Source of the DNA: Candidatus Babeliales bacterium
GTDB taxonomy: Bacteria > Babelota > Babeliae > Babelales > JANWKD01
Assembly (NCBI GenBank): GCA_963701665.1
Contig: OY969622.1
Coordinates: 1,088,001 to 1,152,000 of the forward strand
Reading direction: 5' to 3'
DNA: 64,000 bases
Position 1 is the stretch's first letter. Each line of letters begins with the position of its first letter. Made by a program: the position numbers and the translations under genes. The notes beneath the pieces were generated by a model that was not told where the DNA came from, searched no databases, and worked only from the letters and a program-made list of their open reading frames with translations. Below are positions 33,776 through 60,010 of the stretch, one piece after another.

Positions 33776-34597
33776 TCACCACGTATAGCCTAAAGTCTTA
33801 AGAAGCGGGAGTGCTATCTTCCTAAATACAAGTTTGTGACGTTCGAGAAAATGGTTTTTCCATGAACCAATTTTTCCCTCTCGAAATGTTTCTGTGCCAC
33901 CAAATAATCTTTTAGTAAATCTTTCCGCCTCTTTCCTAGATATTTCAATACCAAGATGATGCGCGATTGCTTGAATTTCATACAGCTGTTCTTCCTTGGT
34001 TCCGCCGCCTTTTGGTCCGACTAACTTTTCAAAGGTGGTTGTATAGACGTTTGGATGAAATCTCCACGGTAAGAATAAATCATAAAAAGATTGTATGCCA
34101 TGCAAACTATTCCATGGCTCTTGCTCATGAAATACTGATTGCCAAATTGGGCCTCCTCCAACAATAAGTTCATCAATAATTTCTTCTAAAGGACGCCTAC
34201 CGTATAGAGGCCACGAAAGAGCGTTCTTTTGCAACCAAAAAGCTGTAGAAACTATTTGATCTCTTGGATCTCGATACATAAAAATTATTTTTATATTCTT
34301 ATCTAATAAAAATGATATATTATGCGGACAATATAATACATGAGAGACGATCAATACATCGCTTGTCATAAAAGTATGCATAATGTCGTCATCAAGAAGG
34401 TACACCGTTTTCGGTTCAATATATTTTTTATCTTTACGCAACATCAAGATAAGTTTTTTTACAAGATTTGTACCACATTTTGGTACGGAAATCAGCATGG
34501 GTAAAAAATTATGTTCAGTTTCATGTGCTTCATTATAAGTAATTGAGATTATAAAGACATACATAAGAAATAGGGAGTATTTATTAAAAAGACTCAT
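33776..34597 (-). CDS. Sulfotransferase-domain protein with signal peptide
   Basis: PKCGT (5'-PSB), YRDPRDQIVS (3'-PB), TFREGKIGSWK. Confidence 0.85.
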   Translation of the reverse strand: MSLFNKYSLFLMYVFIISITYNEAHETEHNFLPMLISVPKCGTNLVKKLILMLRKDKKYIEPKTVYLLDDDIMHTFMTSDVLIVSHVLYCPHNISFLLDKNIKIIFMYRDPRDQIVSTAFWLQKNALSWPLYGRRPLEEIIDELIVGGGPIWQSVFHEQEPWNSLHGIQSFYDLFLPWRFHPNVYTTTFEKLVGPKGGGTKEEQLYEIQAIAHHLGIEISRKEAERFTKRLFGGTETFREGKIGSWKNHFLERHKLVFRKIALPLLKTLGYTW

Positions 34598-34599
34598 AA

Positions 34600-35730
34600 T
34601 TATCTGGCTTTTAGAAGAGCACAATCATCATCAACCATTAGTTTTACTAATTTTTCAAACGTAACTTTTGGTTGCCATCCCAGTTTTGAAAAAGCTTTGC
34701 CAGCATCACCTAATAAATGATCCACTTCTGCCGGCCTAAAATAGCGAGGATCAATACGTACTAATACTTGATTCGTTACCGCATCAATACCTTGCTCATT
34801 AAGCCCACTACCTTGCCATTTTAAATCAATATCTACATGCGCAAATGCATGCTCGAGAAATTCTCTCACTGAATGAGACTCTCCTGTTGCAATAACATAA
34901 TCATCTGGTTGATCTTGTTGTAACATCAGCCACATTGCCTCTACATATTCTTTTGCATAGCCCCAATCACGTTTTGCATCTAAATTGCCTACATAAAGCG
35001 TATCTTGTAACCCACTCTTTATTCGTGCAACTGCGCGAGTTATTTTTCTAGTTATAAAAGTTTCACCACGTAAAGGAGACTCATGATTAAATAAAATCCC
35101 ATTGCAGGCAAAAATCCCATACGCTTCACGATAATTTACCGTAATCCAATACGCATAGAGTTTCGCTACTCCGTAGGGTGAACATGGATAAAAGGGCGTT
35201 AATTCGGTTTGCGGACAAGGTGCGTTACCAAAAAGCTCACTCGTTGATGCTTGATAAAACCGCGTTTTATCGGTTAAATTTAGAATTCTAATTGCTTCTA
35301 AGATTCGTAGTGTGCCTAAAGCATCAGCATTGGCCGTATATTCTGGTGTTTCAAATGAAACTTGCACATGACTTTGTGCAGCTAAGTTATAAATTTCGTC
35401 TGGTTGTACCTGTTGAATGATGCGAATAAGGTTCGTACTATCAGTAAGATCGCCATAATGCAAAATAAATTGAGGATATCCTTGATGTAAATCTTTATAC
35501 AAATGATCGATACGGGTAGTATTAATCGATGAAGATCGACGTTTTATACCGTGCACTTCGTAATCTTTTGATAGCAAAAATTCAGCTAAATAAGCGCCAT
35601 CTTGGCCCGTAATGCCGGTAATTAATGCTTTTTTTTGTTTATGTTTAGAGAATTCCTCACTTGACTCATACGCAGCTCCATACAACGAATAGATGCTGAG
35701 AAATGAGAGTGTTAATAACCTGAAATACAT
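34600..35730 (-). CDS. gmd: GDP-mannose 4,6-dehydratase with signal-like N-terminal extension
   Basis: [43 protein letters not shown]. Confidence 0.96.
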
Positions 35731-35734: not shown

Positions 35735-36823
35735 TTACCCCTTAATCATTGGCATTTTATACCCCAACATTTTTAAATCTTCAAGCCACGCTTTAAGAAG
35801 ATTCAATTCAGAAGGCTTAAAAAAATCTTGTTTAATCAATGTTGTCATGAAATCAAGTATACGAATCCCAAGATCAACTTCTGCGCAATCCCATCCGATT
35901 GCTGCTGTTATAAATTCTCCAGCTTTTAAATATAAATCAATTTCATCAGCAAAATCTTTAAGCAAATCATGTTCATTACGAAATTGAATGGCGGTTGCCG
36001 GTAAAAAACATAAGGAAGCATTAATATCCCATAATATTCTTTGCACCCAATAACTACGCCAAATATCACAAACCCTAAATTTCGGCGTAATAGGTAATAC
36101 TAAACCCCAAAAGGCATCGTAATGAAAAATGGTATTTTGAGAATTAAAAGGACACATTGTTTTTACAGGTAAACTGACCGGTTTTTGGGTTGATTCAAAC
36201 TCAATCTCTTGGCTATGCGTTAAACGAAAAATTGCATCAACATCAGGATCGCTATTAACAAGGCCTTGTTGAATTGGAATAAAAGATCGTTCTAACAAAA
36301 ATTGATGTGACCCGGCTTGATTAATTTCTTTTAACGGAAATCCACGTGGCCATACTCGTGGTTGACCAAAATCAGCATATACATTAACTGCACTCGCATC
36401 TGTTTGATACTGTAGCATTAAACTTTTTTCTGAAAAATACGTGATTGTATCTTCAATTGGAGTATTATCATCATCGGTGTCGTAAATTATTGAAGCACCA
36501 TGCTCTAATGCATATAAATACCCAATATTTTTTCTACTGTAATGATTCCAAGGTAATAATGGACAAATGTTATAGGGTAATTTTTGCTGATCAGCAACAC
36601 TCAAAAAATCACAATTATCCAAATGCCAATCGAGAGGTGTTTTCTTATCTGCAACCACAACCAAATGCCAACCATCAATATTGGCAAGTTTTTCTAATGC
36701 TGGAGTCGGATATTGAATGGTGGTTACTACAATCCATTTATCATGCTGCTGATTAAATAAGAACAAAGGACACAATAAAAGTACAACCGCAATGAAGCTT
36801 TTTATGAATCTGAAAACAAACAT
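35735..36823 (-). CDS. STELLO/DUF288-like glycosyltransferase, N-terminal domain
   Basis: [62 protein letters not shown]. Confidence 0.85.
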
Positions 36824-36845
36824 CCTCTCCCCCCAATTAAATATT

Positions 36846-37679
36846 TCACCTCTTCAACATTTTTTCAAAAAGATTTTTAATAAATATTTGATTTTCTTTA
36901 TATGAAAGCTTAATCGGATGATTAAAATGAGAATCGAATTTAAAAAGTTTATTTGAATCATAATAATGTAAATGAGTATGACTGCCCTTCAACCATAGCA
37001 ATTCTTCCTTTGAGCATAAGCAGGCTACTATTGTTGGTATCGCTAGCTCTAAAAAAGTATTATATTTACTAAAAATAGCAGCTAGCTCAATAAATTTTTC
37101 TTTATATACCGCAGGTATATACACAAAATCAGAAAATCCTGCTAACACTCGATGTTTTCCATAGTTTTTTGCTAATATTTTTTTATAAGATGCAGGCATG
37201 TCTTTATAGGCTTTCTCCACCGCTTTCCAACCCCATGGAGTGTGCCACCAACCCCACTTAGGAAAAGCGTTTGCTCCAAGTTTAAGATTGATGACATCGC
37301 CTCTCGTGCCAACAATATAAGTCATCTCACAAAGCCAGATTTTTAATTGATCCGCATTTTCCAATAACCATGGACCAAAAATGCAATCATCGTGCAAAAA
37401 AAAGTAACCATCAAAATTTGGGTAGCGCTGCATAGCATCGGAGATACACAAATAACTATAATACCCCTTATTATGTGCTAAAAAATGAACGTCAGGATGT
37501 TTTGTAGGACCATAAAAAACAATATTTGCAAAATAGGGTTCATATATCTCTTGCAATAATGGCATGGATTCGTAATGAGCATGATTATAATTTATGATTA
37601 ATAAAATATTATCAAGTGATTGAGAAAATAAATTATGTATAATTAATAAACTAATTATAAAAATTACTTTAACTTCCAT
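36846..37679 (-). CDS. STELLO C-terminal-domain-like protein
   Basis: LLIINYN, YEPYF, GYFFLHDD, SDFVYIP, FLELAIPT, HPIKLS; signal peptide. Confidence 0.7.
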   Translation of the reverse strand: MEVKVIFIISLLIIHNLFSQSLDNILLIINYNHAHYESMPLLQEIYEPYFANIVFYGPTKHPDVHFLAHNKGYYSYLCISDAMQRYPNFDGYFFLHDDCIFGPWLLENADQLKIWLCEMTYIVGTRGDVINLKLGANAFPKWGWWHTPWGWKAVEKAYKDMPASYKKILAKNYGKHRVLAGFSDFVYIPAVYKEKFIELAAIFSKYNTFLELAIPTIVACLCSKEELLWLKGSHTHLHYYDSNKLFKFDSHFNHPIKLSYKENQIFIKNLFEKMLKR

Positions 37680-37884
37680 TCTGCATTCCCCCCTACAATG
37701 AAAGTTATGGATAAAATCTTATGCTTCTCACAATATTTATCCAAAATAGTAGCAAGTTCTACAAAACCTTATCAAGGGTTAGATATAAAAAAGCAAAAAA
37801 GAGATGCCTACTTTGATATTACAACTTCCAACTTTGGATCAATTGTTTTTTAATTTTTTCTAAGATTTCTTGTTTGTAATCAAC

Positions 37885-38739
37885 CTATGAATTTAACATT
37901 TTAGCAAAAAGTTCTTTAATAAAAGTACGATTTGATTCGTATGAAAGCTTTATCGGATGATTCAAATGAAACTTTTGATTAAAGGCTTTATATTCTTCGT
38001 TATAAGGATAACCAGTACCGGTGCAATATAACCAATTCCATTCTTCTTTTAGGCACAAACATGACAAAATAGTTGGAAGAGCAGTTTCTAAAAAAGCTTC
38101 ATGTTTACCATAAATAACAGCAAGTTCTATAAATACTTCGCGATATTTAGCAGGTATATAAAAAAAATCAGAAAAGGATGCCACTACATGATTTTTACCC
38201 CAATTTTTTTCCAAAATTGCTTTACAATCTTTAGGAAGCTCTTTATATGCCTTTGTCATAGCTTCATAGCCAGATTTTCTAGACCACCAGACCCAGTCAA
38301 TCTTGGAAAAATCTTTAGTGCCCGGTTTTATACTGAAATCAATTGGATTTCCTCTGCTTTTACGCCAAAATAAAATATCAGGGGCCCAAATTGTTGTTGC
38401 GTCAAAATCTTTTAAAAGCCATGCATTAAAAATGCAATCATCCATTAGAAAGAAATACCCTTGAAAATTTGGATACTTTTTCATAGCGTCTGCAATACAC
38501 AAATAACTTAAATATCCTTGATTATGCTGTAATTCATGCACCCCCGAATGTTTAGAAGGCCCATAAAATACTATATTCTTAAAATAAGGCTTATAAATCT
38601 CTTCTAATAGTGGAATGGTATTATAATGAGCATGATTGTAATTAATAATTAATAAAACATCATCAAACAGCGAAGATGCGCAAAATACATTCTTAATGAT
38701 CAACAGTGATAGTGCTAGTATTGTTATTTTAGCCTTCAT
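37885..38739 (-). CDS. STELLO C-terminal-domain-like protein, paralog
   Basis: Same motifs (GYFFLMDD, SDFFYIP, FLETALPT, HPIKLS); GAGGAG RBS before ATG 38739. Confidence 0.7.
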   Translation of the reverse strand: MKAKITILALSLLIIKNVFCASSLFDDVLLIINYNHAHYNTIPLLEEIYKPYFKNIVFYGPSKHSGVHELQHNQGYLSYLCIADAMKKYPNFQGYFFLMDDCIFNAWLLKDFDATTIWAPDILFWRKSRGNPIDFSIKPGTKDFSKIDWVWWSRKSGYEAMTKAYKELPKDCKAILEKNWGKNHVVASFSDFFYIPAKYREVFIELAVIYGKHEAFLETALPTILSCLCLKEEWNWLYCTGTGYPYNEEYKAFNQKFHLNHPIKLSYESNRTFIKELFAKMLNS

Positions 38740-38888: not shown

Positions 38889-40850
38889 ATGTGTGGACTT
38901 GGTGGATATATAAATCTTTCAGAACGCTCGTTAACGCCCGATCACTCGCTTCTTGAACAGATGCAACAGCAACTTGCCCACCGTGGACCCAATGGCTATA
39001 GAATTTGGGTTGATGAACAACGAGCCGCAGGTTTTTTCCATCGTCGTTTGAGCATCATGGATCTTTCTGATGCCGGATTCCAACCCATGATGGATAAGGA
39101 AGAATCTGTCGTTGTTATGTGTAATGGTGAAATTTACAACCATCCTGAACTGCGCAAAGAACTTGAAGCGCTCGACTATCATTATGTTTCAAACTCAGAT
39201 ACTGAAACAATAATCCATGCCTATAAAGAATGGGGCATTAACGCGCTCAAAAAATTAAATGGCATGTTTTCTATTGTTATTCTTGATAAACGTAGCAATG
39301 AATTTTTTTTGGTACGCGATCGCCTCGGCATAAAACCGCTCTATTTTTCATTACAAGGAAATATTCTTAGTTTTGCTTCGGAAATAAAAGCTCTGTGGCC
39401 GTTGCCTTGGATTGAAAAAGAGCTCAATACACAAGCAATGTATCATTATCTGACCTATTTGATCACGCCCGCACCAATGACCCTTTATAAGGGAATTTAT
39501 AAATTGCCAGCCTCGTATTATCTTAAAATCGACGCTCAGAAAAATTACTCATTTCATGAATGGTATTCACCCCTAGAGCCTGAGATAACATACGACTCGA
39601 AATCATTACAAAGCGAGCAATTTTGTAGCACTACCTTGCAAAAGATGCTGCGTGAATCGGTCAAGCAACAAATGATGTCTGATGTACCCTATGGTGTTTT
39701 TCTTTCAGGCGGTATTGATTCAAGTTTGAATGTTGCGTTAATGTCTGAATTTACGCCACAGGTAAAAACATTTAATGTTTCGTTTGATGATGGGCCTGAA
39801 TATAGTGAAATTAATTGGGCTCGCAAAATTGCACGCAGATTCAACACCGATCATCACGAAATCATCATTTCTGAAAAAGAAGCGTTTGAATTTTATGAAA
39901 AGATGGTATTTCACCAGGACGAGCCGCTTGCTGATTGCGTATGCATTCCTTTGTATTATGTTTCAAAATTACTCAGCGATGCTGGCGTTGTTGTGGTACA
40001 AGTGGGCGAAGGTTCTGATGAATTATTTTGCGGTTATTCGATCTACGCCACTTATCTTGATTATTACAACCGCTATTGGAAACCATCACAAAAATTCATC
40101 CCGGCATTCGCAAAACAAACTGCCTATCAAATTCTTTCTACCTTATTTCCCCACAAGCAAAACCGCCTTGATATGATCAAAAATTGGGCAGATGGAAAAA
40201 GTTTCTTTTGGAGTGGAGCAACAGCATTCTCTGAAACATGGAAAAAGGAGATGGTACATCTTGCTTCAACATTGCCAGAACATGATGCTATCATTGAAAA
40301 AATCTATCCAGGATTTCAACAACTCTATAATAGCTATGTTGTTGTTGATTATCATTTAAAGCAATTAAAATTACATAAAAAAGATGCTGATTTTTTAACC
40401 TCGATGATCTATCTTGAACTCAAGCATCGATTACCAGAATTATTACTCATGCGCGTGGATAAAATGACCATGGCAACCTCCGTTGAAGCGCGCGTACCAT
40501 TCCTTGATCATCGCATCGTGGAATTTGCACTACAAATTCCTGCCTCGCTTAAATATAAAAATGGTATTACCAAATATATTCTCAAAAAAGCATGCGAGGG
40601 CATTTTACCGCACGATACTATTTACCGCAAAAAAATGGGCTTTGCTGCCCCAACAAGCCGCTGGTTTAAGCAAGGCAACTATTTCAAACCTTATTTCTTG
40701 GATTTGCTTCACAGCAAAAATAGCCCTTGGAACAATTATTTAGATATGAAAGCGGTAACGCACTTATTTGAACGCAATCAGCAACCAGAACATGAATATT
40801 CCGTGCAATTGTGGGCATTGCAAAATCTTATAGCTACCCAAGTCATATGA
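38889..40850 (+). CDS. asnB: Asparagine synthase-like glutamine amidotransferase (polysaccharide amidation)
   Basis: MCG N-terminus, HRGP, NGEIYN, RDRLGIKPLY, LSGGIDSS, GEGSDE, EARVPFLD. Confidence 0.93.
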   Translation: MCGLGGYINLSERSLTPDHSLLEQMQQQLAHRGPNGYRIWVDEQRAAGFFHRRLSIMDLSDAGFQPMMDKEESVVVMCNGEIYNHPELRKELEALDYHYVSNSDTETIIHAYKEWGINALKKLNGMFSIVILDKRSNEFFLVRDRLGIKPLYFSLQGNILSFASEIKALWPLPWIEKELNTQAMYHYLTYLITPAPMTLYKGIYKLPASYYLKIDAQKNYSFHEWYSPLEPEITYDSKSLQSEQFCSTTLQKMLRESVKQQMMSDVPYGVFLSGGIDSSLNVALMSEFTPQVKTFNVSFDDGPEYSEINWARKIARRFNTDHHEIIISEKEAFEFYEKMVFHQDEPLADCVCIPLYYVSKLLSDAGVVVVQVGEGSDELFCGYSIYATYLDYYNRYWKPSQKFIPAFAKQTAYQILSTLFPHKQNRLDMIKNWADGKSFFWSGATAFSETWKKEMVHLASTLPEHDAIIEKIYPGFQQLYNSYVVVDYHLKQLKLHKKDADFLTSMIYLELKHRLPELLLMRVDKMTMATSVEARVPFLDHRIVEFALQIPASLKYKNGITKYILKKACEGILPHDTIYRKKMGFAAPTSRWFKQGNYFKPYFLDLLHSKNSPWNNYLDMKAVTHLFERNQQPEHEYSVQLWALQNLIATQVI

Positions 40851-42100
40851 AGCACAAAAAAATATTGTATCTGCGCACGGATATTTGTGATACGCCACTC
40901 ATTGCTGGCGGTTCAGTTGCTCATACGCTCGGCGTCATTGAAGGCTTTTTATCGCTCGATTATTCCGTTATGTGCGCATCTTCACTTATGCATGAAACAT
41001 TACGAGCGTTACACGTATCATCTTTGTGTACCCTTTCAAACCCTCGTTTTTTACGATTTTTGCGTTGGAAGCTCAATTGTCTTCTTTCATCATTTTTTTT
41101 TACGCTACAAACATTCCGCTTTATTAGAAATGAAAACATCGATTTCATCTATCAACGTTATTCGCTGTTAAATTGTACCGGCATTTTGTTGGGCAAACTA
41201 AAAAAAATTCCTTTAATACTGGAATATAATGGTTCAGAAGTGTGGGTCGATACGTTTTGGACAAAACAGCATTGGCTCTCTTTACGATTTCTCATAGCAT
41301 TCTTTGAAAAACTCAATTTAAAATATGCTCATCTTATTGTTGTTGTTTCACAGCCATTGTGCGATGAACTTGTTGCACGCGGATTTTCACAAGAAAAAAT
41401 TTTGGTAAATCCCAATGGCGTTAACACCGAATTTTTCAATCCCGCGCGTTTGGATGATGAACGCTCGACCTTAAGAAAAACATTACATATCGAACATCAA
41501 TTTGTTTTTGGGTTTATCGGCACTTTTTCAGCATGGCATGGCATCGAAATGCTTGAGGAAATGATTCCAGAAATTCTCGCTCAAAAAAACGATGTTCATT
41601 TTTTGTTAATCGGTAACGGTCCCTTATTTGAAAGTTTTTACAAGAAAATAGAACCTTATACTATTTCCGGTAATGTTACGTGTACAGGATTAATTCCACA
41701 ACATCAAGCGCGTGCCTATTTGGCCGCGTGCGATGCATTTTTATGTCCCACGCAACCAAACCCAGACGGCACGCCATTCTTTGGATCACCGACCAAAATT
41801 TTTGAATATTTGAGCATGGCAAAACCTATTATTGCGTCGGATCTTGAACAAGTAGGCGATTTAATTTCCCCAGCATTTAAAATACATTCACTGCAAGAAG
41901 AAAAACTCTCCGTCACTAATCAAGTTGGCTTTGCGCTTCCCGCGCAAAATAAGCGAGCGTTTATCCACGCAGCATATCGATTAATTGATATGCAAGAAGA
42001 CGAGCGTTTAAAAATGGGGACTTGCGCTCGTCAAAAAGCTCTTGAAAAATATGATTGGCAACATCATGTTAACGAAATTATTTCAGCAATACAAAAATAA
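40847..42100 (+). CDS. GT4 family glycosyltransferase
   Basis: ATGA overlap with asnB; NPNGV, GFIGTF, SPTKIFEYLSMAKPIIAS. Confidence 0.9.
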   Translation: MKHKKILYLRTDICDTPLIAGGSVAHTLGVIEGFLSLDYSVMCASSLMHETLRALHVSSLCTLSNPRFLRFLRWKLNCLLSSFFFTLQTFRFIRNENIDFIYQRYSLLNCTGILLGKLKKIPLILEYNGSEVWVDTFWTKQHWLSLRFLIAFFEKLNLKYAHLIVVVSQPLCDELVARGFSQEKILVNPNGVNTEFFNPARLDDERSTLRKTLHIEHQFVFGFIGTFSAWHGIEMLEEMIPEILAQKNDVHFLLIGNGPLFESFYKKIEPYTISGNVTCTGLIPQHQARAYLAACDAFLCPTQPNPDGTPFFGSPTKIFEYLSMAKPIIASDLEQVGDLISPAFKIHSLQEEKLSVTNQVGFALPAQNKRAFIHAAYRLIDMQEDERLKMGTCARQKALEKYDWQHHVNEIISAIQK

Positions 42101-42108
42101 AGGACACC

Positions 42109-44628
42109 ATGCTCTTAAATTATGTGAAACGAGGGGCTTACAATAGTTTTATTTATGGATTAAGTTCAGCAATCATTAAAATTACTAATTTTATTTTTTT
42201 CCCCTATTTTCTTTCCGTTCTCACATTAGAAGATTTTGGTATTTGGGACTTCTATCAAATGTTTTTTTCATTAGGCATAACCTGTATAACTTCTTGCACT
42301 GCTACTTCTTTAATACGATTTTATTTCTTACACAGAGATAATATCTTAAAGCAAAAGCAAGTTATAGGGAATGCTTGTTTAATATGCCTAATTAGCATGG
42401 CAGTTTTTTTAATTACAATCCTAGGATTATATTATTATAATATTGTTCCAATTATGAGTAATTATTTAACTATAACAATAACTAATGTCTGTCTTTTCGG
42501 GTTATTTACCATTGTTATTTCATATTTACGAATTAACGAAAAATTGTTTTTATATTTGTTTTTTTTTACTGGACAAAGTACGTTAACTCTTGCATTAACA
42601 TTATTAGGCATACATTATCACTATGGCATCGATGCTTTTTTTTTGGCAAATATGATATCACTTTTATTGTTTGTTCCTTTTTTTTTATACCTTCTTTCCC
42701 GAAACTTTTATTTCTCTCTTAGCCTTCTCAAAGAGCAATTTATATTTGGCCTACCTTTACTCTCATATGCTATCATCTATATGGGATTTTTTTATGTTGA
42801 CCGTTTATTTATCACAAATATTCTTGGTTTAGAATCTCTTGGTATTTATGCTTTATTATGGCGATTCGGTATTCTATTTCAATTCTTCTCAATCGCTCTA
42901 ATAGATGCATGGCCAATCGTAGTATTTAATGCTGATAAAGAAAAAAACAGACAAATGCTTCTTACCAAGCTAAATACGTATTATATAGCAACTTTAATTA
43001 CATTAGGATTATCTACAACTATCGCTTCACAGTGCTTAATAAAAATAATGATTCCTATTAAATATCTCTTTTTAACAGAATATTTGCCTCTGTTTTTTCT
43101 ATCTTTGGTATTATTAGATATTGCCAGATTATTACAAACCAGCTTTAACTTAACAAACAAAACATTTTATATACCAATTTTAGCCATCGTTACTTTATGC
43201 ATTCAATATTGTACCTTTTTTATCTGCCAATTTTTTACAACTCTTAATCTTTCAATAGTGTTACTTATTAATATATTTACCTTTTCTTCTTACATAGTTT
43301 TAAGTTATATGCTGACAAAAAAATTATCCAATAAAACAATTGATGATAAACGTACCATAACCATGGCGTGCTTTCTCTTTGTGTATATAATCCTCTTTCA
43401 TATACTTTTTAAGTATCATGCATCTTTATCCTATTCTTTCCTCATGCTTTTTTCTTGGCCACTGCTATTGTGGTTTTCAAATATAATTTCAAGCGATGAA
43501 AAAACCTGGCTTTTAAAAATCATTTCAACAAAATTTCAATATTTATTTGTCGCCTACAATCAAAAAGAAAATCCTGTAACTGAGTATGAATTACATACTT
43601 ATTCTAATAATCTAATAAATAAAAAAATCGCTATATTTGGACCATATCCCCCACCATTTGGTGGCATTAGTGTTCACATCAAAAGAGTCACTCATAAATT
43701 ACTAAATCAGGGTAATGAGGTAAAAAATTTTGACACAACTATTAGACCACGATTTCGAGTTAGCTATATATTTCAGATTATTAGATTTTTAATCACATTT
43801 AAGCCGTCAATAATCTTTTACCACACACCCTATACAAAAAACGGGTTAGAAGAATTTGCAACTATAGTCTTTATAAAATTATTATTTGGCTCAAAATTAA
43901 TACTTATAGAACACGATTCCCGATATTTAGATAAACAATCTTTTTTATTTAAAATAATTTTCAACAAACTTATAAAAATGATTAACCAACAAATTTTCAT
44001 TGGGAAATCCCCCTTAGAAAGTTATTTTAATAACAAAATTTTTATACATTCACAATCTGTTATAGAACCAGCGTTCTTGCCGCCTGACTTATCTCAAGAA
44101 CAGAACATTTTAAAAAGCTATCCAAAAGAGTTATTTCATTTTTTAGAACACCGTAGTCCTATTCTAACAGCGAATGCATTTCAACTAATTTTCCTTGATG
44201 ATAAGGATCTTTATGGATTTGATTGGTGTATTGAACTTGTAAGTCAATTGAAACCAAAATTTCCAGACATCGGCTTTGTTTTTGCACTCGCTCAAATAGG
44301 CAACAAAACATACTATGATCAACTTGTAAAAAAGATAGAAAATTTAAATATAAAAAATAATTTTTATATCTTAACCAATCAAAAAGAATATTGGCCTTTA
44401 TTAAAAAAAGTTGACATATTTGTCAGGCCAACGCTTGCCGATAATTTTGGCATTAGTGTTGCAGAAGCTCTATATTTTGGAAAAATTTCTATCGCAAGTA
44501 ATGTTTGTACAAGACCAAAAAATACAGTTTTATTTAAATGGGGCAATAAAGAAGATTTTTTTGAAAAAGTGAATGCTTGTTTAAATAATCACATACATAC
44601 AAATATATCAGAGCAAATGCATTTATAA
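42109..44628 (+). CDS. Wzx-like flippase fused to a GT4 glycosyltransferase
   Basis: Polytopic N-terminus (LTLEDFG, DRLFI..LGIY); C-terminal PPPFGGISVH ... DNFGISVAEAL. Confidence 0.8.
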   Translation: MLLNYVKRGAYNSFIYGLSSAIIKITNFIFFPYFLSVLTLEDFGIWDFYQMFFSLGITCITSCTATSLIRFYFLHRDNILKQKQVIGNACLICLISMAVFLITILGLYYYNIVPIMSNYLTITITNVCLFGLFTIVISYLRINEKLFLYLFFFTGQSTLTLALTLLGIHYHYGIDAFFLANMISLLLFVPFFLYLLSRNFYFSLSLLKEQFIFGLPLLSYAIIYMGFFYVDRLFITNILGLESLGIYALLWRFGILFQFFSIALIDAWPIVVFNADKEKNRQMLLTKLNTYYIATLITLGLSTTIASQCLIKIMIPIKYLFLTEYLPLFFLSLVLLDIARLLQTSFNLTNKTFYIPILAIVTLCIQYCTFFICQFFTTLNLSIVLLINIFTFSSYIVLSYMLTKKLSNKTIDDKRTITMACFLFVYIILFHILFKYHASLSYSFLMLFSWPLLLWFSNIISSDEKTWLLKIISTKFQYLFVAYNQKENPVTEYELHTYSNNLINKKIAIFGPYPPPFGGISVHIKRVTHKLLNQGNEVKNFDTTIRPRFRVSYIFQIIRFLITFKPSIIFYHTPYTKNGLEEFATIVFIKLLFGSKLILIEHDSRYLDKQSFLFKIIFNKLIKMINQQIFIGKSPLESYFNNKIFIHSQSVIEPAFLPPDLSQEQNILKSYPKELFHFLEHRSPILTANAFQLIFLDDKDLYGFDWCIELVSQLKPKFPDIGFVFALAQIGNKTYYDQLVKKIENLNIKNNFYILTNQKEYWPLLKKVDIFVRPTLADNFGISVAEALYFGKISIASNVCTRPKNTVLFKWGNKEDFFEKVNACLNNHIHTNISEQMHL

Positions 44629-44666
44629 AAAACATAGAGGATTGTGTATTAAAAAAGGAACCTATT

Positions 44667-45344
44667 ATGAATCTAAAACAAACATTTCCTATTAATTACA
44701 TCATTAGTGCCTTTAATTACAGGAATAACACGCTTAAAGATAATTTTTCCAGTATATATTTAAAGAAAAAATGGGGCGGTATAGAAACATTATCCGGCCC
44801 GGGTTCAACGCTAGCCCAAACTGCTATTATTCGCAATGAGATCCCAAAAATCATAAAACAATTTAATATAACAAGTATCCTTGATGCCCCATGTGGTGAT
44901 TTCAATTGGGTGCAACATATGCAATTAGAAGAATGTAATTATATAGGATTAGATATTGTTCAAGAAATGATACATGATAATTCAAAAAAATTTGGGAATC
45001 AAAAAAGAAAATTTATCTGTGCAAATATTGTTGATAATGCCTTACCTTATGCAGATTTGATTTTATGTCGAGATGCTTTAGTGCATTTGAATTTGAAAGA
45101 AGCATTCGATGCCCTTAAAAATTTTCAAAATTCAGGATCACTTTACTTATTAATAACAACATTTCCAGCATGTGAAGTTAATCAAGAGACCTCTAATACC
45201 ATTTGGCGTCCCTTAAATTTACAAAAACCTCCATTTAATCTACCAGAACCATTAATGATCGTTAATGAAAACAATACTCATGATCCAGCTTATCCTGATA
45301 AATCTTTAGGCTTATGGAATTTAAAAGATATAAAATTTAATTAA
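44667..45344 (+). CDS. Class I SAM-dependent methyltransferase
   Basis: SGPGS, ILDAPCGDFNW, DLILCRD. Confidence 0.85.
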   Translation: MNLKQTFPINYIISAFNYRNNTLKDNFSSIYLKKKWGGIETLSGPGSTLAQTAIIRNEIPKIIKQFNITSILDAPCGDFNWVQHMQLEECNYIGLDIVQEMIHDNSKKFGNQKRKFICANIVDNALPYADLILCRDALVHLNLKEAFDALKNFQNSGSLYLLITTFPACEVNQETSNTIWRPLNLQKPPFNLPEPLMIVNENNTHDPAYPDKSLGLWNLKDIKFN

Positions 45345-45417
45345 GAAACTTTAAAAGCGTTTTAACAAAACCCATAACTAAATACGGTACTTTTAATTAT
45401 TGATAAAGAAAGGCCAT

Positions 45418-46269
45418 ATGAATAGTGAAGCAAGCGTTAAAGAAATAACAAAATCCGTTTGGGGCGCAAGTCCCGCTGGTTCGACCCATGCAAAACATCA
45501 CAGCAAGGGTACAAAAGAATTTTTTGAATCAGTTCTTGATCGCAGATTTTCAGAAGAATGTAAATGGATGGATGATATCGTCAACTTCGCACAATTCAAC
45601 GATAAAAATGTTTTGGAAATAGGTTGCGGTGCAGGATACGATGCTTACCAGTTCTGCAAGCATGGGGCTCATTACACAGGTATTGATATAACACCAGAAA
45701 ATCCATTGCTCACTAAAAAACATCTCTCATACTATGGGTACACGCCGCGAACTTTTGAAATGGATGTTGAGCATCTCGATCTTGAAGAAAAATTCGATTT
45801 TATTTTCAGTTTCGGCGTTTTACATCATACGCCCAATATCAAAAAAGCACTTTGTACTATTCGCGCAAGCTTAAAAGATGATGGTCAGGCACAAATCATT
45901 GTATATAATAAATATTCGATCTTTTATGTATTCCATGTTGTTCTTTTTGATTGGATTTTGGGATTAAAATTTTTAAAAACGTCATTAAAAGATCGTCGAT
46001 CACTTATTGAATATACAACAAGTTCAGCAAAACCACTTGTCAACGTGTATGGCAAAAAAGAAATCCATGATTTATGCAAAGAAGCGGGGTTTAAAATTAT
46101 AAAAACTGATATTAGAAAATTGGAAAGAGCAGATTTTCCGAACATACGGTTGATAAGCAAACTTTATCGCTTCATTCCCGATGCCTGGCTTGATTTTTTG
46201 GGTACAAGATTCGGTTGGTATGTTTCAGTACTTTTAGTTAAGGATCATAATGAATCAAGAAAATCTTAA
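45418..46269 (+). CDS. Class I SAM-dependent methyltransferase
   Basis: VLEIGCGAG, FSFGVLHHTP. Confidence 0.88.
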   Translation: MNSEASVKEITKSVWGASPAGSTHAKHHSKGTKEFFESVLDRRFSEECKWMDDIVNFAQFNDKNVLEIGCGAGYDAYQFCKHGAHYTGIDITPENPLLTKKHLSYYGYTPRTFEMDVEHLDLEEKFDFIFSFGVLHHTPNIKKALCTIRASLKDDGQAQIIVYNKYSIFYVFHVVLFDWILGLKFLKTSLKDRRSLIEYTTSSAKPLVNVYGKKEIHDLCKEAGFKIIKTDIRKLERADFPNIRLISKLYRFIPDAWLDFLGTRFGWYVSVLLVKDHNESRKS

Positions 46270-47050
46270 ACAAGAAGTGTATAATTACTGGAATAAAGCA
46301 AGCTGCGGAACTGAATTTATTAAACGAGAAAAATTCACCAAAGAATATTTTGAGGAAATTGAACAATTCCGCTCTACGATCGAACCAGAAATTTTTTCTT
46401 TTGCGCAATTCACGCGTTTTCACGGGAAAAAAATTTTAGAAGTAGGCGTTGGCGCGGGCACCGATTTTCTGCAATGGGTTCGTGCAGGAACGCACGCGCA
46501 TGGCATTGATTTAACACACGAAGCTATTTTTAACGTTAAACACAGATTAGAACTTTATAATTTGCAAGCAGATGATTTACAAGTCGCCGACGCAGAAAAT
46601 TTACCCTATCAAGACAACTCTTTTGATCTTGTCTATTCGTGGGGTGTTATTCATCACTCGCCAGATACCGTAAAATGTTTAGAGGAAATGATTCGCGTGA
46701 CCAAGCCTAATGGCAGTATCAAAATCATGATTTATAACAGACGCTCGCTGTTCGCATTTTACCGTTACATATTGTGCGCGTTATTAAAAGGAAAGCCATT
46801 CCGCACCTTGAGTCATGTTCTTTTCTATGACCAAGAAAGTCTTGGCACTAAAGCGTATACTATCAAAGAAATGAAAAATATTTTAAGAAATTATTCTATA
46901 ACGGTTAATGAAATAAAAGCTTCTGTTACTCAACATGATTTATTGTATTATAAATCAAAGCCATTTCAATGGTTAGCATATAGTGCTGCTTGTCTTTTTG
47001 GTTGGCATAAAGCAGGCTTTTTTATAACAATTAATATAACCAAAAAATAA
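46250..47050 (+). CDS. Class I SAM-dependent methyltransferase, paralog of the upstream gene
   Basis: ILEVGVGAG, DAENLPY, YSWGVIHHSP. Confidence 0.88.
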   Translation: MNQENLKQEVYNYWNKASCGTEFIKREKFTKEYFEEIEQFRSTIEPEIFSFAQFTRFHGKKILEVGVGAGTDFLQWVRAGTHAHGIDLTHEAIFNVKHRLELYNLQADDLQVADAENLPYQDNSFDLVYSWGVIHHSPDTVKCLEEMIRVTKPNGSIKIMIYNRRSLFAFYRYILCALLKGKPFRTLSHVLFYDQESLGTKAYTIKEMKNILRNYSITVNEIKASVTQHDLLYYKSKPFQWLAYSAACLFGWHKAGFFITINITKK

Positions 47051-47053
47051 TAG

Positions 47054-47758
47054 TTATATTTTTGATTTCTTTATAACAGCAACATATAAGCCATTCCACC
47101 AATTATCTTTATCGCAATTGTATCGCGCAGGAAGGGCCTCTTCAAAAAGAATGGCGTAACCCAATGCTTTAAATGCATCTTGCGTGCCATTTCTTACTTG
47201 ATCCCAATTCCAATCATCAACGATTGCAATAAAAATATCTGCAAATATCTCATCGTAGTGGGTAAATGCTTTGTATTGCGATTCATATGAATGATGCCCA
47301 TCGTAAAAATATATATTAACTGGTTGACTAAAAATAGCAGTTAAATTAACACTAAATGAATCTCCTTCATACAATCTAAAGGAATCCTTATCTAAATATT
47401 GAATACAATTATTAAAAAATATGTTTTTTTGAAAGCCGAATTCCGACCAATTATCTATAGCTATCGCATCGAGTAGATTATTTTTATAAAGAGCAGAAAT
47501 AAACGTTGATCCTTTGTATACACCAATCTCAAGATAGCGAGAGTTAGGCAAAGAACATATATTATTCAATAAATGCCTTACTTTTGAACTTGAGAATCCA
47601 TTCAATTGAAGAATCATAGTTGTTAAATTCGATTTGCCTGCCTTTGCTTTTTTTATACTTCGTTTAACGTGTTTAACAAGTAATTCAGCATCATCTGCCT
47701 GCATACAAAAAGACAAAATACTACATACAAAAAATAATTTTTTTAAAAATAACTTCAT
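47054..47758 (-). CDS. Methyltransf_24-like methyltransferase with signal peptide
   Basis: YLEIGVYKGST, YFYDGHH, IVDDWN; signal ending CMQA. Confidence 0.8.
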   Translation of the reverse strand: MKLFLKKLFFVCSILSFCMQADDAELLVKHVKRSIKKAKAGKSNLTTMILQLNGFSSSKVRHLLNNICSLPNSRYLEIGVYKGSTFISALYKNNLLDAIAIDNWSEFGFQKNIFFNNCIQYLDKDSFRLYEGDSFSVNLTAIFSQPVNIYFYDGHHSYESQYKAFTHYDEIFADIFIAIVDDWNWDQVRNGTQDAFKALGYAILFEEALPARYNCDKDNWWNGLYVAVIKKSKI

Positions 47759-47817
47759 TTTTCACCTTTTTTGTAGTTTATTTATCAAGAGTATGTTAAT
47801 ACAAAGCATACATTTTA

Positions 47818-49386
47818 TTAATGATGGGATTTTTGAATAACGGCAACGTATAATCCATCCCACCATTTTTCTAAATCGACATCATAATAAGCCGGCAAAC
47901 TCTTTTCATAAAGAATTTTATAGTTTAACTCACGCAATGCTTCTTTTGTCCCTTTCTGGACATCTATCAAATTCCAAGCATCAACAATAGCAATAAAGGT
48001 ATCTGCAAAAACCTTATCATAGTACACAAAAGCTTTTTTATGATCTTCTTTGGAATGATATCCATTATAAAAAAATATATTAATTGGGCGATTAAAATGT
48101 TCTTCTAAATGTAGGTTAAAAGCATCACAATAAATAACTCTATATTTATTGTGCGATAGAAATATATTAGCGTTTTCACCGAATTCATTTTTTCTATATT
48201 CAGACCAATTACCTATTGCAATTGCATCAGCTACATAATCATGGTTGCCATGTAAAGCAGAAATAAATGTTGATACTCTCAATACACCTGTTTCCAGATA
48301 TCGCACACCTACGATTTTACATAAATTATTCAAAAGACATCTTATTTCTGGGCTGGACATTCCGGGAAGAGCAAATATTTTTTTTGTTAGTCTTGATTTT
48401 TTTTTCTCAGCTTTATCAATACAATCCTGAACATGACATATCAAAAACTGCGGGTTTGTTAAAAATTCATTCTCAGGGCCTGTAACAAAAAATGGCAGTG
48501 ACATTTTATAATCTTTTATGAGATTAAGCCAATAAGGTAAAAATAATTTATCTTTATTATAGTGTTTATCTTGTATTTCTTGATATTTTTTTTCTAAAAA
48601 TTCTTCAGTAACTTCTTCCCAATTTTCGACAATAATAACTGGTAATCCTTCATATAAAGGATTCAATGTTGAAGAATGCACAACAGGAATTGACCCTACT
48701 AATAATGCTTCCCAAGTCCTGAAACAATCAAGCCCATAGCCAAATGGACTTAAAACAAACAAATATTCTGACATCTCCAAAAGATATTCTTTAAAAGGTT
48801 TTTGCGATGCAAGAAAAATAAATGGTTTATCTTTAAAGTGATTAAATACTTTTAAACGTTCTGGTATAACATCATGAACGGTAAAATTAATATACAATTT
48901 ATGATTTTTTTTATTGTGCGTAGGTTCACCAATAGAATCCAAAACAATATCCATCGTCCGTGTATCACCAAATGGAACATGAGGATTTGACATTCCAATC
49001 GGGAGTGGAAAAAATTTAGGGTGATAATTGATATCACAATTCTCACCGTACCATCTTAAAATTCTTGGATCATCAAGATATGAAAAAAACTCTCCGGGCG
49101 ATGGCCAATCGGCATTATGAGTAATTAAAATAAATGGTTCTATAATTTGAGGAAAAAGCTCATTGAAAAAAAAATTGGCTGAGACTCTATCAACAAATAT
49201 AACGCTCTTTGGCCAAAGACCTTTGGGATCAAAATTATATTGAAGATTCTCAACATAATAATAGGCAAAATTTTTAAATCCATTACCAGTTATATACTCT
49301 CTTGTACTATTAAATGCTTGTAAACAATAACAAAAAAATAAAAATAAACAAAATAAAGCTTTATGCAATTTCATAATTTTCATCAA
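47818..49386 (-). CDS. Exostosin/GT47-like plus Methyltransf_24-like fusion with signal peptide
   Basis: FVLSPFGYGLDCFRTWEALLVGSIPVV; degenerate MTase C-domain. Confidence 0.72.
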   Translation of the reverse strand: MMKIMKLHKALFCLFLFFCYCLQAFNSTREYITGNGFKNFAYYYVENLQYNFDPKGLWPKSVIFVDRVSANFFFNELFPQIIEPFILITHNADWPSPGEFFSYLDDPRILRWYGENCDINYHPKFFPLPIGMSNPHVPFGDTRTMDIVLDSIGEPTHNKKNHKLYINFTVHDVIPERLKVFNHFKDKPFIFLASQKPFKEYLLEMSEYLFVLSPFGYGLDCFRTWEALLVGSIPVVHSSTLNPLYEGLPVIIVENWEEVTEEFLEKKYQEIQDKHYNKDKLFLPYWLNLIKDYKMSLPFFVTGPENEFLTNPQFLICHVQDCIDKAEKKKSRLTKKIFALPGMSSPEIRCLLNNLCKIVGVRYLETGVLRVSTFISALHGNHDYVADAIAIGNWSEYRKNEFGENANIFLSHNKYRVIYCDAFNLHLEEHFNRPINIFFYNGYHSKEDHKKAFVYYDKVFADTFIAIVDAWNLIDVQKGTKEALRELNYKILYEKSLPAYYDVDLEKWWDGLYVAVIQKSHH

Positions 49387-49399
49387 TCTTTAAAAAAAG

Positions 49400-51034
49400 T
49401 TAATTATTATTTCTTGCCGGTTTCTTTATAACGGCAACATATAAACCATTCCACCAATTATCTTTATCGCCATTATACGGCGCAGGCAGTACTTCCTCAA
49501 AAAGAATAGTATAACCCAATTCTTTAAACGCATCTCGAGTGCCATTTCTTACTTGATCCCAATTCCAATCATCAACAATCGCGATAAAAGTATCTGCAAA
49601 GACCTTATCGTAATGAGTAAATGCTTTGTATTGCGCTTCATATGAATGGTTACCATCGTAAAAGTATATATTAACTGGTCTATAAAAAAGTTGATGCACA
49701 TTTATGGAAAATGCATTCTGATCTATGACTCTAAAAGCATTTCCCGATAAAAATTTATTCGTATATTGCTTAAAAACATCTTTTCCACCAAATTCAGACC
49801 AATTATCAATTGCAATTGGATCAATCAAATTGTTATTTTTATAAAGCCCAGCGATAAATGTAGAACCTTTATAAACGCCTATTTCAAGATATTGCGCACC
49901 TTCCAAAGAACACACGTTATTCAAAAAATGTCTCACTTTGGAACTAGACATACCATTTATAGATAAAACCTCTTTGGTTAGTTTTGATGTGTGTTCATTT
50001 GTTTTTGTAATACAATTTTTCACATGATATAGTAGGAATTGATCGTTAGTTAAAAAATCATAGTTAGTTTTTTCTAAAAATAACGGTAGAGAATCGTGAT
50101 ACAGATTTATATGTTCAATCCAATACTGCAAAAACAATTTTTCTCTGTTATATGGCAATCCCTTTATTTCTAAATATTTTTTTTCTAAAAAATCTTCCGT
50201 AACTTCACGCCAATCTTCAACTATAATTACTGGCAAATCTTTATAGAGATCATTTACTGTAGAGGAATGAACAACAGGAATTGACCCTACCAATAACGCT
50301 TCCCACGTTCTATAACAATCAAGCCCGCCACCAAAAGGGCTCAAAACAAACAAATATTGCGACATTTCCAACAAATATTTCTCAAATTGCTTGCGCTCAG
50401 CATTAAAAACGAAAGGCTTATTTATAAAGTGATTATATACTTGCGTTCGAGAAGGCACTGATTGACGTTTAGCGCGTATATCACTACTAAGCGAAAAATT
50501 CATGTATAATTTGTGTACCTTTTCTGTCCGGTCGAGTATATTCACACGTGCCAAAACAGCATCTAAGGTTTTAACATCATCAAAAACTGCACGCTTCAAA
50601 ATATCCATAGGGATATGAGAAAATTTAGGGTGCGTTATATCAAAATTCTGTTCATAACGATTTGGAATACCAATAGGAAGAGGAAAAAATTTAGGATGCC
50701 CTGTTATATCGGGATTTGCTCCGTACCATCTTAAAATACGCTTATCATCAAGATACTCAAAGAATTCGCCAGGAGAAGCTTGATCAGCATTGTGCGTCAC
50801 TAAGACGAAAGGCACCGTAATTTGAGGGAATATTATGTCGAAAAAGAATCGCAGAAATTTTCCATCAACATAAATAATACTTTTAGGTTCAATATTCTTT
50901 GGATCGAAGTTAATCCCGGATCTCAAAACTTGATATTTGGCATTTTTCTTAAAGCCATTACTTGTGATATATTCTCTTGAATCACCAAATAAATTTATAG
51001 ACCACAAGAGTAATAATAAATACTTCAATTTCAT
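49400..51034 (-). CDS. Exostosin/GT47-like plus Methyltransf_24-like fusion, paralog 2
   Basis: Same motifs; intact EIGVYKGS, YDGNH, VDDWN. Confidence 0.75.
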   Translation of the reverse strand: MKLKYLLLLLWSINLFGDSREYITSNGFKKNAKYQVLRSGINFDPKNIEPKSIIYVDGKFLRFFFDIIFPQITVPFVLVTHNADQASPGEFFEYLDDKRILRWYGANPDITGHPKFFPLPIGIPNRYEQNFDITHPKFSHIPMDILKRAVFDDVKTLDAVLARVNILDRTEKVHKLYMNFSLSSDIRAKRQSVPSRTQVYNHFINKPFVFNAERKQFEKYLLEMSQYLFVLSPFGGGLDCYRTWEALLVGSIPVVHSSTVNDLYKDLPVIIVEDWREVTEDFLEKKYLEIKGLPYNREKLFLQYWIEHINLYHDSLPLFLEKTNYDFLTNDQFLLYHVKNCITKTNEHTSKLTKEVLSINGMSSSKVRHFLNNVCSLEGAQYLEIGVYKGSTFIAGLYKNNNLIDPIAIDNWSEFGGKDVFKQYTNKFLSGNAFRVIDQNAFSINVHQLFYRPVNIYFYDGNHSYEAQYKAFTHYDKVFADTFIAIVDDWNWDQVRNGTRDAFKELGYTILFEEVLPAPYNGDKDNWWNGLYVAVIKKPARNNN

Positions 51035-51115
51035 AAGGCTCCTGTACTATTTTTACATTTTACTGTTATTTATTAAAAATATATCTTCCCCGAATAAGAT
51101 AGCTCATACAATGAT

Positions 51116-52693
51116 TCATTTTGAACCTATCCTAGTTGGTTTTTTTATAACAGCAACATATAAACCATTCCACCAATTATCCCTATCACCATTGTATTGC
51201 GCTGGAAGAATCTCTTCAAAAAGAATAGTATAACCCAATGCTTTAAATACATCTTGAGTGCCATTTCTTACTTGATCCGAATTCCAATCACCAACAATCG
51301 CAATAAAAGTATCTGCAAAGACCTTATCGTAATGAGTAAATGCTTTGTAGTGCGCTTCATATGAATGATAACCATCGTAAAAGTATATATTAACTGGCCT
51401 ATAAAAAAGTTGATGCACATTTATAGAAAATGCATCCTGGTCTATAACTCTAAAAACATTTTCCAATAAAAATTCATTTGTATACAGCTCAAAGGCGTAT
51501 CTTCCACCAAATTCAGACCAATTATCAATTGCAATTGGATCGATCAAATTGTTATTTTTATAAAGCCCAGCGATAAATGTAGAACCTTTATAAACACCTA
51601 TTTCAAGATATTGCGCGCCTTCCAAAGAACACACATTATTCAAAAAATGTCTCACTTTGCAACTAGACATACCATCTATTGATAAAACCTCTTTGGTTAG
51701 TTTTGATTTCTGTTCATTTGCTTTTTTAATACAATTTTTCATATGATGTATTAGGAATTGATCTCTAGTTAAAAAATCATAGTTAGGTTTTTCTAAAAAT
51801 AAAGGTAGAGAATCGCGATACAGATTTATAGGTTCAATCCAATACTGCAAAAACAACTTTTCTCCGTTATATGGCAATTCCTTTATTTCTAAATATTTTT
51901 TTTCTAAAAAATCTTCCGTAACTTCACTCCAATCTTCAACTATAATCACTGGCAAATCTTTATAGAGCTCATTTAATGTAGAAGAATGCACAACAGGAAT
52001 TGACCCTACCAATAATGCTTCCCACGTTCTAAAACAATCAAGCCCTTTCCCAAAAGGGCTCAAAACAAATAAATATTGTGACATTTCCAATATATATTCC
52101 TTAAGTGGCTTGCGCACAGCATTAAATACGAAGGGCTTATTTATAAAGTGATTATATACTTGCGTTCGAGCAGATATTGATTGACGTTCAGCGCATACGT
52201 CAGTATTAAGCGAAAAATTCATGTATAATTTGTGTATTTTTTCTGTTCGATCGGGTATATCCACATTTGCCAAAACAGCATCTAAGATTTTAGTATCGGC
52301 ATACAAAACTACGCGCTTAGGAATACCGATAGGAAGAGGAAAAAATTTGGGGTGCCCTGTTATATCAGCATTCTCGCCGTACCATCTTAAAATACGCTTA
52401 TCATCAAGATATTTAAAGAATTTACCTGGAGAAGGAAAATCAGCATGATGCGTCACTAAGATGAAAGGCACTGTAATTTGAGGGAATATTGTATCGAAAA
52501 ATAATCGCAAAAAATTTCTATCAACATAAATAATACTTTTAGGTTCAATATTCTTTGGATCAAAGTCAATCCTAGATTTCACAACTTGATATTTGGCAAT
52601 GTTTTTAAAGCCTCTGCTTGTGATATATTCTCTTGAATCATCACCAAATAAATTTATAGACCACATGAGTAATAATAAGTACTTCAATTTCAT
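51116..52693 (-). CDS. Exostosin/GT47-like plus Methyltransf_24-like fusion, paralog 3
   Basis: Long near-identical DNA stretches shared with paralog 2. Confidence 0.75.
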   Translation of the reverse strand: MKLKYLLLLMWSINLFGDDSREYITSRGFKNIAKYQVVKSRIDFDPKNIEPKSIIYVDRNFLRLFFDTIFPQITVPFILVTHHADFPSPGKFFKYLDDKRILRWYGENADITGHPKFFPLPIGIPKRVVLYADTKILDAVLANVDIPDRTEKIHKLYMNFSLNTDVCAERQSISARTQVYNHFINKPFVFNAVRKPLKEYILEMSQYLFVLSPFGKGLDCFRTWEALLVGSIPVVHSSTLNELYKDLPVIIVEDWSEVTEDFLEKKYLEIKELPYNGEKLFLQYWIEPINLYRDSLPLFLEKPNYDFLTRDQFLIHHMKNCIKKANEQKSKLTKEVLSIDGMSSCKVRHFLNNVCSLEGAQYLEIGVYKGSTFIAGLYKNNNLIDPIAIDNWSEFGGRYAFELYTNEFLLENVFRVIDQDAFSINVHQLFYRPVNIYFYDGYHSYEAHYKAFTHYDKVFADTFIAIVGDWNSDQVRNGTQDVFKALGYTILFEEILPAQYNGDRDNWWNGLYVAVIKKPTRIGSK

Positions 52694-52726
52694 AATGCCC
52701 AACTACTCTTATATCTCGTACATTTA

Positions 52727-53944: not shown

Positions 53945-53969
53945 AATTCTTAAAAAATCTTAAATAATA

Positions 53970-55181: not shown

Positions 55182-55334
55182 ATCAATCTTTATTAACCAA
55201 TTTTAATTTTGCGATTACTCTAACATAATTAGCTTTCATGTCTAGGTTAAGATCTTTCAAAATTTTGCTATCATAGATCCTACGAACCGTATTTTGTAGT
55301 AAAGAGGGTTGATAGTTTTCTTAAAAAAGAAAAC

Positions 55335-56294: not shown

Positions 56295-56316
56295 TTCCTT
56301 CTATTCAAACAATTGT

Positions 56317-57543: not shown

Positions 57544-57574
57544 TAATCTAACCTTATTGTCAAAAAAGAGTGTC

Positions 57575-59935: not shown

Positions 59936-60010
59936 AAAGCTCACCTTGAAAAAAAATAAAAGAAAACTACCTTTAAGTGTATGGTGAAAAAGTAAAAAAG
60001 AGGAAAAATC

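Follow-up and report, generated by a model that had tools for sequence, protein, structure and literature searches.

A split STELLO/DUF288 system in a Babelota genome: one GT75-like gene beside two standalone GT-A genes, likely a two-enzyme module

Is STELLO/DUF288 one enzyme or two? Cellulose synthase assembly in the plant Golgi depends on this family (PMC4906169), a phenotype that does not carry over to a bacterium, and its members are common in invertebrates, early-diverging fungi and algae; no activity for it was found in the literature searched. The question is raised by a 64,000-nucleotide stretch of a Candidatus Babeliales genome (contig OY969622.1, positions 1,088,001 to 1,152,000 of the forward strand; hereafter the window), in which the STELLO halves are separate genes, one for the N-terminal domain (N) and two for the C-terminal domain (C1 and C2, collectively C). 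We argue that STELLO is likely a two-enzyme module, combining a predicted sugar-nucleotide-reshaping enzyme with a predicted sugar transferase, because its halves are separate genes in Babelota and are fused in reverse order in some viruses. The three genes are:

35735..36823, minus strand: N gene, STELLO N-domain with a GT75/MtdL fold, 362 amino acids (aa)
36846..37679, minus strand: C1 gene, standalone STELLO C-domain, GT-A fold paralog, 277 aa, with a signal-like N-terminus
37885..38739, minus strand: C2 gene, standalone STELLO C-domain, 284 aa counted from the ATG at 38739

The sequence-only reading of this DNA had assigned STELLO N-half motifs to 35735-36823 and a second motif set to two adjacent, co-oriented paralogs, and every one of these is present: in N, RKNIGYL (residues 97-103), DDDN (117-120), WPRG (158-161) and DPDVDA (192-197); in both C1 and C2, LLIIN, GYFFL[H/M]DD, SDF[V/F]YIP, E[L/T]A[I/L]PT and HPIK. 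N begins with a hydrophobic stretch (residues ~2-25) and carries the site residues T34, D59, D117-D119, R160, D194, S228, Q229, R250, D253, R282 and H285, along with Y95 and Q280, which are specific to the STELLO N family. The conserved residues of C2 are x-D-D (D100, D101), D191, E218 (the predicted base) and H261-P-I-K264; a ribosome site (AGAGGAG) lies just 5' of its ATG, and its longest open reading frame (ORF) starts at 38766. C1 and C2 are 55% identical and sisters in the tree (support 93/90), which points to a local duplication. N and C are not paralogs of each other, neither BLASTP (best E 1.1) nor hhalign (probability 0.9%) finding any relatedness. The genome is one contig of 1.34 Mb with 37% GC and contains exactly one N and two C genes. 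Its named close relatives belong to Candidatus Dependentiae/Babeliales. Its source is likely a small-genome parasite; cultured Babelota are intracellular parasites of protists (PMC6561590). A promoter and terminator scan gave nothing beyond shuffled sequence (22 versus 25.4; 4 versus 3.0).

Alignment to Arabidopsis STL1 bears out the proposal that a two-domain eukaryotic protein is here split into genes, N and C falling on separate halves. Our reference was a 771-codon ORF (L072:227-2542), found with a primer from the supplement of PMC4906169 and agreeing at both ends with the STL1 cloning primers of that paper. N aligns to STL1 residues 112-465 (35%, E 5e-73) and the C-family alignment to residues 507-755 (hhalign probability 98.7%, E 2.8e-16), C2 D100-D101 falling on STL1 D591-D592. 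All three proteins pass the curated cut-off (27.8 bits) of Pfam STELLO (PF03385), with 79.1 bits for N, 36.1 for C1 and 30.9 for C2, and match different parts of the model (1-112, 199-303 and 204-310, respectively). N is 41-48% identical to animal, fungal and algal fused proteins. Among the best 120 of its 311 homologs of at least 635 aa, mostly from molluscs, nematodes, annelids, rotifers, Mortierellaceae and green algae, a C-profile match follows the N match in 101; together with the STL1 alignment, this settles that the C-type ORFs correspond to the STELLO C-terminal region, as had been claimed. The usual STELLO arrangement, a single type II membrane chain that carries both domains, is absent, three separate uninterrupted ORFs standing in its place. 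A frameshift or assembly split of one fused gene is ruled out, because the genes have their own hydrophobic N-termini and ribosome sites, vary in order and strand, and are separate ORFs in 16 of 16 Babelota genomes; among the bacterial loci L001-L071, no ORF holds N and C together.

The GT75 likeness of the STELLO N-half is already published. Our model of N (predicted local distance difference test, pLDDT, 96.2) is matched by Foldseek to MtdL with a template-modelling score (TM) of 0.79 and E 6e-24, and to rice UAM2 with TM 0.62. It superposes on MtdL, a GT75 guanosine diphosphate (GDP)-pyranose mutase (PMC9937993), over ~370 columns, and the two also match by sequence (E 6e-20 for the single sequence, 1.6e-31 for the profile). 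The triple Asp, acceptor Arg, base Asp, Gln229, Arg257 and Asp195 of this family are found in N as D117-119, R160, D253, Q229, R250 and D194. Equivalents of MtdL D109-111, R159, D195, Q229 and D260 occur in 19/19 bacterial, 95/95 fused and 19/19 other long homologs, that of R257 in 19/19, 93/95 and 19/19, and those of R289 and H292 in all 133; the MtdL mutants D109N, R159K, D195N, Q229A, R257K and D260N are inactive (PMC9937993). Judged by model and residues, N is an enzyme-like GT75 fold rather than a generic glycosyltransferase, though it lacks two features of the known mutases. We infer a preference for GDP, since N has Thr34 (Thr13 in MtdL, Pro in RGPs using uridine diphosphate, UDP) and a non-Asp at the Ser86 position, and adjoins a GDP-mannose 4,6-dehydratase gene (gmd). 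A more canonical, signal-less chlamydial GT75 lies beside an Fcl-like gene (L083:1435-2541); where MtdL has His287 it too has Gln, and in place of Asp87 it has Ile. At L006:6732-7628 (genome G130), a premature TAA shortens N to 299 aa with loss of the C-terminal helices, and the adjoining C is intact.

The C2 model (pLDDT 94.8) has a complete GT-A fold. Its best VIA-align match is CHSY3-CHPF (Z 14.9, root-mean-square deviation 3.2, 201 aligned), followed by B3GalT5 (12.8), B3GalT6 (12.4), C2GnT and C1GalT1 (both 12.1), B3GNT2 (11.9), the galactofuranosyltransferase GfsA (11.7) and Fringe (11.3), with deviations of 3.2-4.0 Å. Seven of these top eight rows are enzymes that we take to be GT31, the tie at 12.1 involving the GT14 enzyme C2GnT; the fold is accordingly of the GT31 type (Z 11.3-14.9). 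By sequence, no membership in GT31 was found: the profiles Galactosyl_T, Fringe and CHGN are absent from the 25 families shown for 109 C members at E<=1, neither C profile has a match in the PDB, and hhalign against the GT31-bearing P0067 gives a probability of 0.1. As no sequence link joins C to its structural matches, we treat it as a family apart from GT31. BFVD yielded no close viral structural relatives of C, only generic GT-A rows. The predicted site is well kept: D100/D101 occur in 36/36 bacterial and 90/95 fused homologs, E218 in 35/36 and 85/95, H261 in 35/36 and 82/95, and K264 in 35/36 and 81/95. Relative to published GT-A landmark descriptions, the conserved residues would be suitably placed, x-D100-D101 following a strand, E218 standing at a helix start and H261, with K264, being C-terminal, and D191 is conserved as well. 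The suggestion that the C-half is an independent glycosyltransferase is likely right, because the predicted GT-A fold is complete and C occurs without N in other genomes. The STELLO C-half is thus a predicted second GT-A enzyme, not described as such in PMC4906169. In the literature searched, which covered few subscription journals, we found neither a split or reversed-order STELLO nor the C-half as its own GT-A family.

Among 251 genomes of the phylum Babelota, N matches strongly in 17 and C occurs in 18, both in 16, N alone in one and C alone in two; an 18th N match is weak (E 2e-4) and uncounted. The two are adjacent in all 16 genomes holding both, as C->N in eight, C->N->C in one, N->C in four and on opposite strands in three. 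N is always single-copy there and C has two or three copies in seven, giving one N per one to three C. In trees without outgroups, the bacterial sequences make up a single weakly supported group for N and another for C. In one rooted tree, with viral and canonical GT75 rows added, eukaryotic N nests inside Babelota, the approximately unbiased test being borderline (p 0.0485); bacterial C is one clade (97/94), and chlamydial sequences fall among those of Babelota. These trees used LG+G4 with no mixture model and contain long branches. Viral scans gave 27 loci, with 11 rows (nine distinct proteins, five on contigs labelled GVMAG) in which C is followed by N in one chain:

L089:4986-6788, L090:5022-6800, L092:3116-6304, L093:4596-6392, L094:4791-6386: viral C-N fusions
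L099:4239-5975, L108:3385-5118, L109:4173-6026, L110:4245-5945: the remaining viral C-N fusions

These have no evident signal and retain every scored site residue; Pfam STELLO missed both of those scanned (L089 and L092) at E 1e-4. The L092 protein has an extra FkbM domain and lies head to head with a UDP-galactopyranose mutase gene. Since eukaryotes fuse N-C and viruses C-N, domain order does not matter. Other fusions join a GT31-like domain to N, N to a nicotinamide adenine dinucleotide (NAD)-dependent epimerase/dehydratase, GT92 and RRM to N and C, C to TylF, and N to Methyltransf_24:

P0067, P0178, P0166, L003:6874-8694, L019:7434-9110: loci and proteins with these other fusions

How would the halves work together? 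The reading that we favour, at a little under an even chance, is that N reshapes a nucleoside diphosphate (NDP)-sugar and C transfers the product, both activities being predicted. N and C would be separate proteins acting in sequence. The substrate of N would be an NDP-sugar, likely of the GDP type, which N would bind and convert by GT75 chemistry, probably from pyranose to furanose, with Arg160 as nucleophile and Asp253 as base by analogy with MtdL Arg159 and Asp260. C1 and C2 would be inverting GT-A transferases placing this product on a glycan, with D100-D101 and H261 binding nucleotide and metal and E218, at the helix start, acting as base. By way of a diffusible product, a single N could supply between one and three C paralogs that differ in their acceptors. 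The hydrophobic N-termini might, as a weaker step, export or anchor the enzymes, so that they would act beyond the bacterial cytoplasm and perhaps inside the host cell, the proposed place where NDP-sugars, S-adenosylmethionine and 3'-phosphoadenosine-5'-phosphosulfate are available.

Several observations weigh against this account. At the position of MtdL Asp87 (Ser in active RGPs) N has Tyr95, and at that of the Mn ligand His287 it has Gln280, both invariant in 133/133 homologs. D87N and D87S inactivate MtdL, Tyr is the residue of the inactive AtRGP5 at this position, S91Y kills AtRGP2, and His287 is not conserved in RGP5 (PMC9937993); the chemistry of N may therefore differ from that of a mutase. 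The resemblance of C extends to pyranosyl transferases and is not confined to GfsA. In Chlamydiota (200 genomes), C occurs in five, strong N in two and both in one. The mutase gene glf, considered as a furanose source, is present in just 1/5 C-only genomes, so that C needs neither N nor an obvious furanose source. The link to gmd is weak: it lies within ~8 kb in 3/24 loci and is present in 13/15 genomes with N and C versus 22/45 without N, these being kin and not independent. A gmd with a signal is no commoner alongside N and C (2/13 versus 3/16 by a script that read 13/16 and 16/29 loci; 4/13 versus 4/16 by eye), and these counts do not support it as a marker of such genomes. As for export, a crude hydropathy rule finds a hydrophobic N-terminal stretch in 100/117 N and 52/58 C homologs, and likewise on 436/776 long ORFs of this genome, a share comparable with the 44% of Chromulinavorax (PMC6561590). 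Such N-termini thus say little about location. Complementation by plant mutants, discussed below, counts on the same side.

Copolymerases such as the LARGE, CHSY and EXT families are usually built as a type II Golgi protein with two GT-A domains, a build that STELLO shares. Both domains might thus be glycosyltransferases alternating on one chain, N transferring a sugar, perhaps through a covalent Arg160-sugar intermediate, and C adding the next; this is possible, if on the unlikely side. It would suit the polymerase CHSY3-CHPF as top structural match of C, the deviation of Y95 and Q280 from known mutases, the fusion of N to the GT31-like domain of P0067 and its place beside other glycosyltransferases in phages. 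GT75 proteins also autoglycosylate Arg (PMC9937993). Against it, GT75 transfer to an external acceptor is not found described in the available part of that paper. N also retains nearly the whole closed MtdL sugar pocket throughout the superposed columns, and one N with up to three C suits a shared donor better than a one-to-one polymerase.

Should N and C instead be independent glycan enzymes merely clustered in fast-shuffling glycosylation islands, their fusions would reflect a shared pathway with no hand-over. This would accommodate the C-only genomes (G086, G119 and four chlamydial) and N-only cases (G067, G421 and phages), the standalone C proteins of Nematostella and Cavostelium (names were available for 3 of 10 looked up), the imbalance between 5224 N-like proteins (199-634 aa) and 60 close relatives of C, and the fusion of both domains to other enzymes (TylF, Methyltransf_24, a short-chain dehydrogenase/reductase). 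We consider it improbable, given that 16/17 N-bearing and 16/18 C-bearing Babelota genomes hold both, that the two remain direct neighbours, in four arrangements, while the genes around them change, and that fusions exist in both orders. Very improbable in our view is a non-catalytic partner, be it N as a nucleotide-sugar-binding scaffold or chaperone for C, as with RGP5 and with partners of the CHPF type, or the pair as a structural complex, which is what plant STELLO may form: Y95 with Q280 fits the inactive RGP5 pattern and STL1 works despite degenerate sites, but all other catalytic residues show no variation among bacteria, animals, fungi, algae and viruses, unlike in a dead enzyme, and free gene order with reversed fusions requires no fixed interface.

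The plant protein calls for separate treatment. STL1 carrying DD591-592AA complemented stl1stl2, as did the equivalent Arg mutant in Arabidopsis, labelled R271A (PMC4906169); this label misfits the STL1 sequence, in which Asn occupies position 271, the WPRG Arg position 260 and DVD positions 296-298. The C-half DD emphasised by the sequence-only reading is hence present and conserved but unneeded for plant complementation. In the one plant sequence compared, STL1 has R207 for D119, F336 for Q229, M357 for R250 and no Q-x-R-N-x-H motif in its N half, and K696 for E218 and S746 for K264 in its C half, site residues mostly retained in the proteins of bacteria, animals, fungi, algae and viruses. 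Loss of these near-invariant residues would explain why the DD591-592 and Arg mutants work, and plant STELLO may be largely non-catalytic. The idea that the locus offers a tractable model therefore holds in part: by its residues, the Babelota trio should be a closer model of the STELLO of animals, fungi, algae and viruses than of plant STL1, in which the predicted C-domain base and several N substrate residues are lost. Plant STELLO versions were mainly insoluble in Escherichia coli (S1 Fig legend of PMC5466300). The split genes encode three compact single-domain proteins with predicted sites intact, so that the halves could be assayed singly and jointly. Two points of the comparison concern the whole family, namely the C-half as a second GT-A domain and the site-residue loss in Arabidopsis STL1.

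In its widest form, our favoured reading would make STELLO an ancient mutase-plus-transferase module in which the unstable product of N, a GDP-furanose (fucofuranose or L-galactofuranose), forms at the very place where C, an undescribed GT-A family, transfers it. We think this clearly unlikely to hold in full, with all its lineage consequences. If it did, animals, fungi and algae would form furanose glycans in the Golgi lumen by an undescribed route, giant viruses would run this chemistry in the cytosol by means of their reverse-order fusion, Babelota would export the split kit into the host, and plant STELLO would be a largely dead descendant serving as a scaffold for cellulose synthase assembly.

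The surroundings of the three genes are given over to glycan enzymes:

34600..35730, minus strand: second GDP-mannose 4,6-dehydratase (gmd), starting 4 bases downstream of N
33776..34624, minus strand: sulfotransferase (PF00685) with a hydrophobic N-terminus, next after gmd in the run
38889..61447: glycan cluster with an AsnB-like amidotransferase, GT4s, a flippase-GT4 fusion, methyltransferases, three RXYLT1-like proteins, GT2s and FkbM

On the minus strand the order is C2, C1, N, gmd and sulfotransferase, and this gmd is likely in the same operon as N. It has an N-terminal extension of ~33 residues without counterpart in the canonical gmd of the genome (C1:123332-124438, within a manC-gmd-fcl run). 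Signal-peptide-like N-termini also occur on other normally cytoplasmic Babelota sugar-nucleotide enzymes (Gmd, Fcl-like, RmlD-like and PseB-like), a canonical copy often lying elsewhere in the same genome:

34600-35730; L017:3575-5822; L008:11891-12901; L086:10788-12815; L117, L118, L122, L128, L133, L139, L150, L154: signal-bearing sugar-nucleotide enzymes

The N/C loci of relatives are likewise glycan islands, with GT10, GT6, GT32-like, GT92, GT25, LicD, TylF/FkbM methyltransferases and sugar-nucleotide enzymes; many of the 82 chosen neighbours scanned have signal-like N-termini. Within the cluster, 47818-52702 encodes three tandem RXYLT1_C-like proteins with hydrophobic N-termini, two of which score a fused Methyltransf_24 domain, and 47054-47758 a standalone copy of that methyltransferase. 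At 52727-57588, three paralogous multi-pass proteins of ~400 aa without a Pfam match are interleaved with GT2 (GtrB/DPM-like) genes, an arrangement conserved in L002, L005 and L006; they are possibly GT-C enzymes with a lipid-linked donor. Further off, 27971-30715 holds both subunits of what is presumably an M16-type zinc protease (HLIEH motif) in one ORF with a signal-like N-terminus. Elsewhere in the genome (G000:C1:892150-894435), a flavoprotein with a dinucleotide-binding start adjoins an NAD-dependent epimerase and appears to resemble UDP-galactopyranose-mutase-like proteins.

Set against known systems, the Babelota genes have both domains at full length in common with Arabidopsis STELLO1/2 and the fused homologs (PF03385; PMC4906169), and differ in being separate, in having C duplicated and in having no linker. 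Compared with the GT75 relatives MtdL/Hyg20 and plant RGP/UAM (PMC9937993; PDB 7xps, 7yua, 8cid), N shares with MtdL the equivalents of Thr13, Asp40, Asp109-111, Arg159, Asp195, Ser228, Gln229, Arg257, Asp260, Arg289 and His292, and departs from it by Asp87->Tyr, His287->Gln, Asn42->Lys and Ser86->His; unlike all these mutases, it has a hydrophobic N-terminal helix and a C-type transferase as partner. C has an acidic pair after strand 4, a Glu at a helix start and a C-terminal His, which would correspond to the GT-A landmarks set out in PMC7948508; relative to GT31-clade enzymes its motif is x-D-D, the first Asp being absent.

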